The notes under the pieces: generated by a model
Seen by the model: only the letters and a program-made list of their open reading frames with translations
Told to the model about the DNA's origin: nothing
The model's database searches: none
Part shown: positions 23,240 to 55,060 of the stretch, piece by piece
Layout: every line of letters starts with the position of its first letter
How positions within the stretch are numbered: position 1 is the stretch's first letter
Position numbers and translations under genes: made by a program
DNA from: Escherichia coli
GTDB taxonomy: Bacteria > Pseudomonadota > Gammaproteobacteria > Enterobacterales > Enterobacteriaceae
Length of the DNA: 64,000 bases
NCBI RefSeq assembly: GCF_046105845.1
Contig: NZ_CP151004.1
Direction: 5' to 3' (one strand)

Positions 23240-25501
23240 TTACCCCCGACGCAAATTCTGCGCCGCCTGCACCATGTTCGCCAGTGCCGCGCGGGTTTCT
23301 GGCCAGCCGCGCGTTTTCAGGCCACAGTCCGGGTTGACCCACAGACGCTCTGCCGGAATGCGTTTTGCCGCTTTCTTCAGCAGGGCTTCAATCCATTCCA
23401 CGCTCGGTACGTTTGGCGAGTGAATGTCATAGACGCCTGGACCAATTTCATTTGGATAATCAAACTCTTCAAACGACTCCAGCAACTCCATGTCGGAACG
23501 CGAGGTTTCGATGGTGATGACGTCTGCGTCCAGCGCCGCAATCGAATCCATGATGTCGTTGAACTCGCAGTAACACATGTGAGTGTGGATTTGTGTGTCA
23601 TCTTTCGCCACGGCGGCGTTGATACGGAAAGCCTCCACGCCCCACTGGAGATAGGCATCCCAGTCGCTGCGACGCAGCGGTAAACCTTCGCGCAGCGCCG
23701 GTTCATCAATCTGGATGATGCCAATTCCAGCGGCTTCCAGGTCCGCCACTTCATCACGCAGCGCCAGCGCAATTTGTTTGGCGATGGTTTCACGGCTGAC
23801 ATCTTCACGCGGGAATGACCAGCAGAGTATGGTTACCGGCCCCGTCAGCATCCCTTTCACCGGTTTGTCAGTCAGCGATTGTGCATATTTCGCCCACTCC
23901 ACGGTAATTGGTGCCGGGCGGCTAACGTCACCAATGACAATCGGCGGCTTCACGCAGCGGGAACCGTAGCTCTGTACCCAACCGTTTTGCGTAAAGACAA
24001 AACCGTCGAGATGCTCGCCAAAGTATTCCACCATGTCATTACGCTCGGCCTCGCCATGCACCAGCACATCCAGACCTAAACGTTCCTGCTCAACAATGGC
24101 CTGCTTGATATGTTCCGCAATGCCCGTGCGGTAGTTGTTGGCGTCGAGATTACCCTTTTTGAAATCCAGACGCAGGGTACGAATTTCCGTGGTTTGCGGG
24201 AAAGAACCAATCGTGGTGGTCGGCCACGCGGGCAGTTTAAAACGCGCACGCTGGGCTTCAGCACGCACTTCATAGACATTCGCACGCTGACTGTCCTGAG
24301 CGGTGATCGCCGCCAGACGCTTTTCTACTGCCGGATTATGTACGCGGGTTGAGTGACGACGCGCCTGAATCGGGGCGCTCCACTCTGCCAGAGCTGCCGT
24401 GTCACCACTGTTCAGCGCATCGCGCAGCAGTGACAGTTCATGGCATTTTTGTAGGGCGAAGGCAAACCAGCTTTTCACTTCTGCATCAAGACGCGTTTCC
24501 ACGCTCAGGTCGATGGGGCTGTGCAGCAACGAGCAGGAAGATGCCACCCACAAATCACGTTTGCCGACAATGTCCTTAATTTGCGCATATTTCTCGGTAA
24601 GATCGGCGCGCCAGACGTTACGACCATTGATAAGACCCGCAGACAGTAGCCAGTCTGAAGGCAGACGCTTGTGCAGTTCAGCAACGTCATCTTTACCATG
24701 TACAAGGTCCACATGCAGCCCCTGAACAGGCAGCGCAGTAATCGTGTCGAGGTTTGGCGTTACGCCTTCAAAATAGGTAGTCAGCAGCAGTTTCACCTGG
24801 CCCTGGAGCGCGTCGTAAGCGGGGTTGTATGCGTCCAGCCACGCCTGCGGTAGTTCCAGTACCAGCGCTGGTTCGTCGATCTGTACCCACTCAATGCCGC
24901 GTTTTGCCAGTTCTGCCAGTACTTGCTGATAAACCGGCAGAATGTCGTTTAGCAGGCTCAGGCGGTCAAACTGTTCACCTTTCACTTTCCCAAGCCATAG
25001 GTAGGTAACCGGCCCCAGCAGCACAGGTTTCACCTTGTGGCCCAGCGCCAGCGCCTCGTCCACTTCCTCCAGCAGCTGCGTCCAGGTCAGTTTGAACTGC
25101 TGGCCTTTAACGAACTCCGGCACCATGTAGTGATAGTTGGTGTTAAACCATTTGGTCATTTCCGCTGCCGCCGCAGGTTCGCCAGTCGGCGCACGTCCAC
25201 GACCAATACGGAACAGGGTGTCGATATCTACCGAACCATCTTTGTTCTGATGACGCGCTGGAACGTTACCCAGCAGCAGACTGGTGGTCAGGACATGATC
25301 GTACCAGGCAAAATCGCCCACCGGCAGCAGGTCGATACCCGCTTGCTTTTGTTGATCCCAGTGACGGGCACGCAGTTCACGCCCTACTGCCAGCAGTTCT
25401 TCACGCGTGGAGTTCCCCGCCCAATAACTCTCTTGCGCTTTTTTCAGCTCGCGACGCAGGCCAACGCGAGGGAAACCGAGGGTGTGATTCAATATTGTCA
25501 T
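23240..25501 (-). CDS. metE: cobalamin-independent methionine synthase
   Basis: 753-aa [33 protein letters not shown]... recognised as MetE. Confidence 0.95.
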
Positions 25502-50327: not shown

Positions 50328-51527
50328 ATGACGGAACAAGAAAAAACCTCCGCCGTGGTTGAAGAGACCAGGGAGGCCGTGGACACCACGTCACAACCTG
50401 TCGCAACAGAAAAAAAGAGTAAGAACAATACCGCATTGATTCTCAGCGCGGTGGCTATCGCTATTGCTCTGGCGGCGGGCGTCGGTTTGTATGGCTGGGG
50501 TAAACAACAGGCCGTCAATCAGACCGCCACCAGCGATGCCCTGGCTAACCAACTTACGGCACTGCAAAAAGCCCAGGAGAGCCAAAAAGCCGAGCTGGAA
50601 GGCATTATCAAGCAACAAGCTGTACAGCTTGAGCAGGCGAATCGTCAGCAAGAAACGCTGGCAAAACAGCTGGATGAAGTCCAACAAAAGGTCGCGACTA
50701 TTTCCGGCAGCGATGCTAAAACCTGGCTGCTGGCTCAGGCTGATTTCCTGGTGAAACTCGCCGGACGGAAGCTGTGGAGCGATCAGGACGTCACGACCGC
50801 TGCAGCGTTGCTGAAAAGTGCAGACGCCAGCCTGGCGGATATGAATGACCCGAGTCTGATTACCGTTCGTCGGGCAATTACCGATGATATCGCCAGCCTT
50901 TCTGCGGTATCGCAGGTGGATTATGACGGCATCATCCTTAAGCTTAATCAGCTTTCAAATCAGGTAGATAACCTGCGTCTGGCTGATAATGACAGCGATG
51001 GTTCGCCGATGGATTCCGACGGTGAAGAGCTTTCCAGTTCCATCAGCGAATGGCGTATCAATCTGCAAAAAAGCTGGCAGAACTTTATGGACAACTTCAT
51101 TACGATTCGCCGTCGTGATGACACCGCCGTACCACTGTTAGCGCCGAATCAGGATATCTATCTGCGCGAAAATATTCGCTCCCGCCTGCTGGTCGCGGCA
51201 CAAGCCGTACCGCGTCATCAGGAAGAGACTTATCGCCAGGCGCTGGAGAATGTCTCCACTTGGGTACGTGCTTACTACGATACTGATGATGCCACCACCA
51301 AAGCGTTCCTCGACGAGGTGGACCAGTTAAGCCAGCAAAATATCTCGATGGATCTCCCGGAAACCCTGCAAAGCCAGGCGATGCTGGAAAAACTGATGCA
51401 GACTCGCGTGCGTAACCTGCTGGCACAACCGGCAGCGGGGACAACGGAAGCTAAACCTGCACCTGCACCTGCACCTGCACCTGCACCGCAAGCTGATACT
51501 CCGGCAGCCGCGCCGCAAGGAGAATAA
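50328..51527 (+). CDS. hemX: HemX, membrane-anchored coiled-coil protein (putative uroporphyrinogen-III C-methyltransferase annotation)
   Basis: 399-aa ORF recognised as HemX; contains a (Pro-Ala) repeat near the C-terminus encoded by a hexanucleotide tandem repeat. Confidence 0.92.
51456..51485 (+). repeat. hexanucleotide tandem repeat (CCTGCA)x5 inside hemX
   Basis: Five perfect CCTGCA copies at 51456-51485 followed by a degenerate CCGCAA; encodes [11 protein letters not shown]. Confidence 0.9.
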
Positions 51528-51529
51528 CC

Positions 51530-52726
51530 ATGCTAAAAGTGTTATTGCTCTTTGTGTTGCTGATTGCGGGGATAGTGGTTGGCCCGATGATTGCCGGACA
51601 CCAGGGTTACGTGCTGATCCAGACCGACAACTACAATATTGAAACCAGCGTCACTGGCCTGGCGATTATTTTGATTCTGGCAATGGTAGTGCTGTTTGCC
51701 ATTGAGTGGCTACTGCGGCGGATCTTCCGCACAGGCGCACACACCCGTGGGTGGTTTGTCGGACGTAAGCGTCGCCGTGCGCGTAAGCAGACCGAACAGG
51801 CGCTGCTGAAACTAGCGGAAGGCGATTATCAGCAAGTTGAAAAGCTGATGGCGAAAAATGCCGATCACGCGGAACAACCGGTGGTGAACTATTTGCTGGC
51901 TGCCGAAGCCGCGCAACAACGTGGTGATGAAGCACGCGCCAACCAACATCTGGAACGCGCAGCGGAGCTGGCCGGCAATGACACCATTCCGGTAGAAATC
52001 ACCCGTGTACGTCTGCAACTGGCCCGTAATGAAAACCATGCTGCACGCCACGGCGTGGATAAGCTGCTGGAAGTTACGCCACGCCATCCAGAAGTATTAC
52101 GTCTGGCGGAACAGGCGTATATCCGCACAGGTGCATGGAGTTCGCTGCTGGATATCATCCCATCAATGGCGAAAGCCCATGTTGGTGATGAAGAACATCG
52201 TGCAATGCTGGAACAACAGGCATGGATTGGCCTGATGGATCAGGCGCGTGCCGATAACGGTAGCGAAGGTTTGCGTAACTGGTGGAAAAACCAAAGCCGG
52301 AAAACGCGTCATCAGGTGGCGTTGCAGGTGGCAATGGCGGAACATCTTATTGAATGTGACGATCATGATACTGCCCAGCAAATTATCATCGACGGCCTGA
52401 AACGCCAGTATGACGATCGCCTACTGCTGCCGATCCCGCGTCTGAAAACCAATAACCCGGAACAGCTGGAAAAAGTGCTGCGCCAACAGATCAAAAACGT
52501 GGGCGATCGCCCGCTGTTGTGGAGCACACTGGGTCAGTCGCTGATGAAGCACGGAGAATGGCAGGAAGCATCGCTCGCCTTCCGCGCAGCGCTGAAACAA
52601 CGTCCGGACGCCTACGATTACGCATGGCTTGCCGACGCGCTGGACAGACTGCACAAACCAGAAGAAGCTGCAGCGATGCGCCGCGACGGTTTGATGTTAA
52701 CGTTGCAGAACAACCCGCCACAGTAG
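51530..52726 (+). CDS. hemY: HemY, TPR-repeat inner membrane protein of the hem operon
   Basis: 398-aa ORF recognised as HemY; starts 3 bp after hemX stop. Confidence 0.93.
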   Translation: MLKVLLLFVLLIAGIVVGPMIAGHQGYVLIQTDNYNIETSVTGLAIILILAMVVLFAIEWLLRRIFRTGAHTRGWFVGRKRRRARKQTEQALLKLAEGDYQQVEKLMAKNADHAEQPVVNYLLAAEAAQQRGDEARANQHLERAAELAGNDTIPVEITRVRLQLARNENHAARHGVDKLLEVTPRHPEVLRLAEQAYIRTGAWSSLLDIIPSMAKAHVGDEEHRAMLEQQAWIGLMDQARADNGSEGLRNWWKNQSRKTRHQVALQVAMAEHLIECDDHDTAQQIIIDGLKRQYDDRLLLPIPRLKTNNPEQLEKVLRQQIKNVGDRPLLWSTLGQSLMKHGEWQEASLAFRAALKQRPDAYDYAWLADALDRLHKPEEAAAMRRDGLMLTLQNNPPQ

Positions 52727-52992: not shown

Positions 52993-53404
52993 CCACAGAG
53001 AACCGGGAAATAACATCCCTTAACACTTGTTATGAGATAATTCTGTAATCCTCTTTGCTTCCTGAGTAATAACTTCCTGAGTGAATATTTCTCCTGCGCA
53101 CGATTCTACACATATATATAATGAATAATAAAAGTCATTCAATTAATAACATATATATTAATTGCCGTTAAAACTAAAAACAGCATCAATAATCAACGCG
53201 ATATAACATCACCGCCTTACATATCACCTGCGCCAGAGGTAGGATTGAAAACGCTCTCCTGATTTTCCAATTCATTTTCTGGATAAATAAATAATTTATT
53301 TTTATCACTATTATTTATGCAATCATCCTGTCAGGGAGAGGGATCTCAATTATCAATGCTTAATTACGTCAACATTTTGACGACATGAAACCGGAGCATT
53401 TTGC

Positions 53405-55060
53405 ATGGAATTTTCGTTTTCACCCAAACTTCTTGTTGTGGCTGTCGCCGCCGCTCTTCCACTCATGGCCAACGCAGCAGATACCCCGTCAACCGCCACC
53501 GCACGCAAAGGCTTTGCCGGATACGATCACCCAAACCAGTATCTGGTTAAACCGGCGACCACTATTGCCGACAACATGATGCCGGTGATGCAGCATCCTG
53601 CACAAGACAAAGAAACCCAGCAGAAGCTGGCAGAACTTGAGAAAAAAACCGGTAAGAAACCGAACGTGGTTGTTTTCTTGCTGGATGATGTGGGCTGGAT
53701 GGATGTTGGCTTTAACGGCGGCGGCGTGGCGGTGGGTAACCCTACACCAGATATCGACGCCGTTGCCAGCCAGGGGCTGATTTTAACTTCGGCGTATTCT
53801 CAACCGAGTTCTTCCCCAACCCGCGCCACGATTCTTACCGGGCAATACTCCATCCACCACGGCATTCTGATGCCGCCAATGTACGGGCAACCGGGCGGTC
53901 TGCAAGGGTTAACCACTCTGCCGCAGTTGCTGCACGATCAGGGCTACGTCACTCAGGCCATCGGGAAATGGCATATGGGGGAAAACAAAGAGTCGCAGCC
54001 GCAGAACGTTGGCTTTGATGATTTCCGCGGTTTTAACTCGGTATCCGATATGTATACCGAATGGCGTGATGTTCACGTCAACCCGGAAGTCGCCCTGAGC
54101 CCGGATCGTTCTGAATACATCCAAAAACTGCCGTTCAGCAAAGATGACGTTCATGCCGTGCGCGGCGGTGAACAGGAAGCCATTGCCGACATTACGCCGA
54201 AATATATGGAAGACCTGGATCAACGCTGGATGGAATATGGCGTTAAGTTCCTCGACAAGATGGCGAAGAGCGATAAGCCTTTCTTCCTCTACTACGGCAC
54301 TCGCGGCTGTCACTTCGATAACTACCCAAATGCGAAATATGCGGGTAGCTCTCCGGCGCGCACCTCTTACGGCGACTGCATGGTGGAGATGAACGATATC
54401 TTCGCCAATCTGTATAAAGCACTGGAGAAAAACGGTCAGCTTGATAACACGCTGATTGTGTTCACCTCTGATAACGGTCCGGAAGCCGAAGTTCCGCCGC
54501 ACGGTCGCACACCGTTCCGCGGTGCGAAAGGTTCTACATGGGAAGGCGGCGTTCGTGTGCCAACCTTCGTTTACTGGAAAGGCATGATCCAACCGCGTAA
54601 ATCTGACGGTATTGTCGATCTGGCGGATCTCTTCCCAACCGCGCTGGATCTGGCGGGGCATCCTGGAGCGAAAGTGGCGAATTTAGTGCCGAAAACCACC
54701 TTTATCGATGGTGTGGACCAGACATCCTTCTTCCTGGGAACAAATGGTCAGTCTAACCGTAAGGCCGAGCACTACTTCCTCAACGGCAAACTTTCTGCTG
54801 TGCGTATGGATGAGTTCAAGTATCACGTCCTGATCCAGCAACCGTACGCGTATACCCAGAGCGGGTATCAGGGTGGATTCACCGGTACAGTAATGCAAAC
54901 GGCGGGATCGTCGGTGTTTAACCTGTACACCGATCCGCAGGAAAGCGACTCCATCGGCGTGCGCCATATCCCAATGGGTGTACCGCTACAGACCGAAATG
55001 CATGCGTATATGGAGATCCTGAAAAAATATCCACCACGCGCGCAGATTAAATCTGATTAA
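53405..55060 (+). CDS. aslA: arylsulfatase-family sulfatase AslA
   Basis: 551-aa ORF with signal peptide and sulfatase signature ([19 protein letters not shown]-x-P-x-R type motif), recognised as AslA. Confidence 0.93.

Follow-up and report, generated by a model that had tools for sequence, protein, structure and literature searches.

The CCTGCA array at the 3′ end of Escherichia coli hemX is the MLVA typing locus CVN014 and varies in whole units within the reading frame

Does a short tandem repeat inside the coding sequence of hemX vary in length among strains of Escherichia coli, and, if so, does the variation act as a switch, as a tuned trait, or as a fast molecular clock? The question is raised by five mismatch-free copies of CCTGCA that are read directly from the plus strand at positions 51456-51485 of the 64,000-nucleotide stretch of E. 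coli DNA analyzed here (the window). The array is preceded by AAA and followed by CCG CAA (positions 51453-51491 for the whole context), and Tandem Repeats Finder delimits it to positions 51455-51487, with a period of 6, 5.5 copies, 100% matches, and zero indels. The head-to-tail arrangement of a short unit, by which a variable-number tandem repeat (VNTR) is recognized, is therefore present in hemX. Both the sequence and Tandem Repeats Finder confirm the original prediction, which was made from the sequence alone and which had described five perfect, in-frame copies at this location. The prediction had also counted one degenerate copy; the hexamer CCGCAA is indeed found at the 3′ edge of the array (51486-51491, plus strand), but it is merely a partial unit, CC plus GCA, from which the T is missing. 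This hexamer encodes Pro-Gln, provides the last Pro of the tract, and is constant in all alleles that we read.

By simple arithmetic, such an array is not expected by chance. In a perfect run of 33 bases with a period of 6, 27 positions are fixed, which gives an expectation of about 4^−27 per site, or ~1e−11 per 64-kb random sequence. Across the whole 64-kb window, Tandem Repeats Finder detected no second array that exceeds about 2 copies. The program reported three weak two-copy repeats at positions 23286-23324, 53058-53087, and 53680-53711 (periods of 19, 15, and 15, respectively), of which the second falls in the intergenic region between hemY and aslA and the third within aslA.

The array is held in frame by a coding sequence of 399 amino acids on the plus strand (positions 50328-51527). 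That this gene is hemX, as had been proposed, is supported by a match to the Pfam HemX family PF04375 over residues 130-363 (E = 3.8e−108; 361 bits versus a cut-off of 25.9) and agrees with the RefSeq annotation of the closest genome. The open reading frames and the annotation of the closest genome identify hemC, hemD, and hemY, and then aslA, as neighbors of the gene, and the position within a hemC-hemD-hemX-hemY operon is the context expected for HemX. The encoded protein consists of an N-terminal transmembrane helix, a coiled region, the PF04375 domain, and an Ala/Pro-rich tail (residues 364-399). Within this tail, the five units encode (Pro-Ala)5 at residues 377-386, and the complete (Pro-Ala)5-Pro tract occupies residues 377-387, outside PF04375 and beyond the last predicted helix. 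An AlphaFold2 model based on a 20-sequence alignment, whose mean pLDDT of 42.8 is too low to establish disorder in the tail, has no secondary structure past residue 365. HemX is a poorly characterized inner-membrane protein, and its “methyltransferase” name is historical (PMC2704936). It has also been described as a distant relative of Mic60 that has no mitofilin domain (bioRxiv 10.1101/2022.06.14.496148).

The number of units differs widely among strains. A 441-base query (window positions 51250-51690) matched the locus in 5,425 of the 5,426 complete E. coli genomes. Across the 5,426 genomes, perfect units range in number from 1 to 25, and one genome has a deletion of the whole array. The original prediction had inferred a length-variable array; the counts bear this out, and the unit number is clearly not identical everywhere. 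In a first systematic sample of 60 rows from the matches to the 441-base query, matched lengths differ from the query by multiples of six only, from −18 to +54 bases. In the 13 sequences that we read base by base, eleven of them taken from these matches (2, 3, 4, 5, 7, 8, 9, 10, 13, 14, and 25 units across the 13), the number of CCTGCA copies is the only difference, and the flanks are near-identical while the number of units changes among strains.

Examples of individual alleles cover much of this range. There are 2 units in K-12 MG1655, 3 in strain 4621, and 4 in O157:H7 strain Xuzhou21. The window has 5 units, as do O157:H7 strain NE1169-1 and O169:H41, the latter being the closest relative of the window at the array among the matches listed. 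Longer arrays are present in WP9-S17 (7 units), CFT073 (8 units), strain 1428 (9 units), O6:H16 (10 units), O157:H7 strain Z1504 (13 units), and MB06234 (14 units). The proposal that HemX of K-12 has about 393 amino acids and differs from the window’s protein by repeat units proved accurate: HemX of MG1655 has 393 amino acids and 2 units versus 399 amino acids and 5 units in the window.

An evenly stepped sample of 58 inner rows contains 10 genomes with 2 units, 2 with 3, 4 with 4, 9 with 5, 9 with 6, 6 with 7, 5 with 8, 4 with 9, 3 with 10, 3 with 11, and 1 each with 12, 13, and 15 units. The median of this sample is 6 units, in agreement with the first sample and with the 41% of genomes found to have at least 7 units; these figures describe two systematic samples of ~59 rows each, plus targeted searches, and not a full count, and they are drawn from complete genomes, among which laboratory derivatives of K-12 (2 units) and outbreak clones are over-represented.

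The upper end of the distribution was obtained with a synthetic 59-unit query, which sorts the records by their number of units. BLAST queries built with 0 or 30 units give no such order, since two-piece alignments reach full coverage. The maximum is 25 perfect units, verified in the sequence of strain SD134209, whose HemX has 439 amino acids. Below this maximum, the ranking continues with 23, 22, 21 (5 genomes), 20 (4 genomes), 19 (7 genomes), 18 (6 genomes), 17 (21 genomes), and 16 units (at least 14 genomes). At the lower end, a junction-specific 39-mer identified a single unit in 44 genomes, strain HS among them, and a junction-specific search of the complete E. coli genomes for the 0-unit junction matched no genome. 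The sole complete genome found without any unit is that of NCTC11023, in which an in-frame deletion of 27 bp (L013, 447-460) removes the whole array together with the next five codons (PQADT), joins AAA to CCGGCAGCC, and leaves a HemX of 384 amino acids.

An E. coli-like HemX from an ENA metagenome (P0001, 485 amino acids) has an interrupted array (PAPAPAPTPAPAPAP) with one Ala-to-Thr replacement. This protein is called ~86 amino acids longer than usual, probably owing to an upstream start call. Such interruptions of the array appear to be rare.

Variation is also found among close relatives. O157:H7 genomes have 4, 5, 7, 13, 15, 16, or 17 units, which is variation within one clone, and the nearest relatives of the window at the array, among the matches listed, have 5, 6, and 8 units. 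Over the 441 bp, the genomes nearest to the window among the matches listed are those of an O169:H41 pig isolate, of ST2747 strains, and of strain 042. Only 3 of the 5,425 genomes are at least 99% identical to the window over this region, and most are 93 to 98% identical, with repeat gaps counted; the window therefore belongs to an E. coli lineage that has been sequenced less often.

The locus itself was already known, because the hemX CCTGCA array is the long-established MLVA typing marker CVN014. A generic E. coli MLVA scheme that includes CVN014 (GECM-7 / GECM-10) was reportedly put forward by Lindstedt and colleagues in 2007. CVN014 primer R (GCAGCRGGGACAACGGAAGC) matches the plus strand of the window at positions 51432-51451, and primer F (TCCCCGCAATCAGCAAMACAAAGA) matches the minus strand at positions 51549-51572, inside the start of hemY, both with 0 mismatches (primer sequences from Table 1 of PMC8143711). 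The two primers converge on the array, of which (CCTGCA)5 is the variable part, and delimit an amplicon of 141 bp (51432-51572). Under the sizing formula of the same paper, (product size − 111)/6, this amplicon corresponds to allele 5, an integer that equals the unit count of the window. CVN014 and the hemX array have the same 6-bp unit, the same primer sites, and the same offset, and nothing in substance distinguishes them.

Published typing data for CVN014 describe the same kind of variability. CVN014 is the most variable locus of its scheme in the typing literature, with which PMC5217547 agrees, and its alleles in published typing range from ~1 to 12. Isolates of ST131 differ mainly at CVN014, where they have alleles 2 to 11 (PMC3407997, Table 2). 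Allele numbers are off by one between some papers, with ST131 being assigned 4 in PMC3407997 versus 5 or 6 elsewhere. We found no open-access paper that names hemX alongside a VNTR or MLVA marker and no open-access typing paper that refers to the Pro-Ala tract, and the link between gene and marker came from primer matching and not from the literature.

The PCR-based typing data also bear on whether the variation could be an artifact of sequencing or assembly, in which unit numbers differ through errors in resolving the repeat. Long-read assemblies can miscount short repeats; however, the differences are always whole units of perfect sequence, three assemblies of one strain agree with each other, and PCR fragment sizing by independent laboratories has produced the same range since 2007. 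On these three grounds we exclude an artifact, to which we assign a negligible probability.

What, then, changes the number of units? Pure arrays, whole-unit changes, and a wide, skewed range are together the signature of slipped-strand mispairing, and replication slippage is the most likely source of the copy-number change. We hold it very probable that CVN014 at the 3′ end of hemX is a slippage-driven, in-frame, and near-neutral VNTR that acts as a fast clock and not as a switch. Under this model, slipped-strand mispairing on the pure CCTGCA array at replication would lead to the gain or loss of units, and each change would leave the reading frame intact because the unit has 6 bp. At the level of the product, the sole effect would be that the inner-membrane protein HemX has a longer or shorter Pro-Ala run in its C-terminal tail.

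The unit itself may contribute to slippage. CCTGCA contains the palindrome TGCA, and, when folded with DNA parameters, single strands of the array can form quasi-hairpins. For 13 units, the predicted energy is −14.9 kcal/mol for the coding strand (z = −5.5) and −18.1 kcal/mol for the other strand (z = −2.5). Such TGCA folds could stabilize slipped intermediates.

A known parallel is provided by the hexamer loci of O157:H7 MLVA (O157-3, -9, -10, -17, -19, -25, and -37), which are 6-bp VNTRs as well and likewise change in whole units. Like them, the hemX array is strongly variable in O157:H7 (4 to 17 units). Presumably, it is none of the eight PulseNet O157 loci, whose primers, in the form compared here, have no match in the window, and we do not claim that it is O157-3. 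The published O157-3 allele of EDL933 is 13, and some O157:H7 genomes have 13 units in hemX, which we take to be a coincidence. Upon serial passage, the O157 hexamer loci change at ~1e−4 to 1e−3 per generation, within limits of 4e−5 to 2e−3, and nearly all of these changes are in whole units (PMC3777172).

Slipped-strand mispairing on short repeats would likewise be common to the hemX array and the contingency loci of Neisseria, Haemophilus, and Campylobacter, and one could ask whether hemX is itself a phase-variable contingency locus, with repeat changes switching the gene on and off. The array is a simple sequence repeat within a coding sequence, and the bacterium has further hypermutable loci, both of which would be consistent with such a role. 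However, the contingency loci of these three genera shift the reading frame or the promoter spacing and are thereby turned on or off, whereas the 6-bp unit of hemX never shifts the frame. Every allele that we read, whether with 1 to 25 units or with the 27-bp deletion, stays in frame and ends at the same stop codon, in line with the expectation that length changes would not break the frame, and RefSeq annotates hemX as intact in each of the rows listed. The preserved frame excludes on/off phase variation, to which we give practically no chance.

Could array length instead act on the downstream gene? The ATG of hemY is at position 51530, 2 nt past the hemX stop codon, and its Shine-Dalgarno sequence, AAGGAG, is inside the last hemX codons, CAA GGA GAA TAA (positions 51517-51532 for the end of hemX and the start of hemY, plus strand). 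The array stops 44 nt before the hemY ATG, and the 2-nt spacing of stop and start suggests translational coupling. If the array altered mRNA structure or ribosome traffic, HemY levels could change with unit number, and the predicted minimum free energy of the RNA does change from −55 to −117 kcal/mol between 0 and 25 units. Nevertheless, the predicted pairing of the hemY Shine-Dalgarno sequence and AUG in the RNA fold is identical from 0 to 25 units. The distance from the 3′ edge of the array to the Shine-Dalgarno sequence is constant in all alleles read, as are the 44 nt to the ATG. Furthermore, Pro-Ala repeats are not known as a strong stalling motif. We regard a regulatory effect on hemY as very unlikely.

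The HemX tail of related genera shows how the array may have arisen. The tail of Salmonella HemX (L017) has no array and one proto-unit. In Citrobacter gillenii, the 3′ end of hemX (L015, ~1440-1475) has 4 perfect CCTGCA units after ACTGCA. Given the array of C. gillenii and the proto-unit of Salmonella, the CCTGCA array either predates E. coli or arose repeatedly from the proto-unit, as far as can be read from these sequences. In Citrobacter sedlakii, an array of the 9-bp unit GCACCTGCC, encoding Pro-Ala-Ala, is found at the same position of the tail (L016, ~1440-1480). Three C. sedlakii proteins (P0029, P0021, and P0009) have 394, 397, and 400 amino acids, each one unit apart, and the 9-bp array seems to be a further, independent VNTR in the HemX tail.

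These comparisons are relevant to an adaptive alternative, according to which the length of the Pro-Ala tract is a tuning knob for how far the periplasmic end of HemX reaches or how stiff it is, and is selected by lineage or niche. Alternation of Pro and Ala is known from semi-rigid spacers, and the X-Pro region of TonB, the hinge of OmpA, and the Ala-Pro linkers of the E2 subunits of 2-oxo acid dehydrogenases are spacers that join two functional domains. The HemX tract resembles these spacers in its alternation of Pro with a small residue and in its location in an envelope protein, where it is probably periplasmic. Unlike these spacers, it has no partner domain. The tract (residues 377-387) comes after the end of PF04375 at residue 363 and is followed by only 12 residues, and, therefore, we rejected an inter-domain Pro-rich linker and regard the region as a tail. 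For the same reason, the tract cannot set the distance between two folded domains, which counts against tuning.

In favor of tuning, the 12 residues past the tract (..PAAAPQGE) are conserved in three genera, and 20 sequences from these genera all end in PQGE. The CCTGCA array of C. gillenii could indicate long retention of the tract, and HemX, as a distant Mic60 homologue, may form contacts within the envelope (bioRxiv 10.1101/2022.06.14.496148). However, the PQGE codons contain the hemY Shine-Dalgarno sequence, which explains the conservation of PQGE at least as well; this conservation need not reflect HemX function, and it may serve the translation of hemY instead. The tract is also missing in Salmonella and deleted in NCTC11023, and the wide spread of unit numbers inside single clones is what drift at a fast locus predicts. 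Taken together, these points make adaptive tuning improbable, and no observation made here favors it specifically. Marginally less probable still is the specific proposal that the Pro-Ala length is functional by setting the periplasmic reach of the conserved C-terminal end of a Mic60-like protein. If it were true, slippage would provide E. coli lineages with a heritable, quickly adjustable envelope trait, and the arrays of Citrobacter (CCTGCA in C. gillenii and the 9-bp unit in C. sedlakii) would be parallel solutions.

The comparisons suggest instead that the length changes have little effect. E. coli tolerates 0 to 25 Pro-Ala pairs, the tract is lost in NCTC11023, and it is absent in Salmonella, all of which point to near-neutrality. 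Because the tail is not part of the conserved HemX domain and is not the same from genus to genus, changes in its length are most probably near-neutral, and we suggest that they are neutral or nearly so.

As a hypervariable repeat, the feature is ordinary and was known before. It offers little new biology, and the analysis is mainly a clean validation, in that a hypervariable locus was correctly predicted from raw sequence alone. What is added here is the explicit link between CVN014 and the Pro-Ala tail of HemX, an allele range widened to 0-25 units, and the arrays that related genera have of their own. With this link, the CVN014 allele (5 in the window) can be taken directly from an assembly, which connects genomes to more than 15 years of MLVA data. 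Differences in hemX length between strains should not be counted as annotation errors. Finally, HemX accommodates both the loss of the tract and a tract of as many as 25 Pro-Ala pairs, which usefully constrains studies of this uncharacterized protein.
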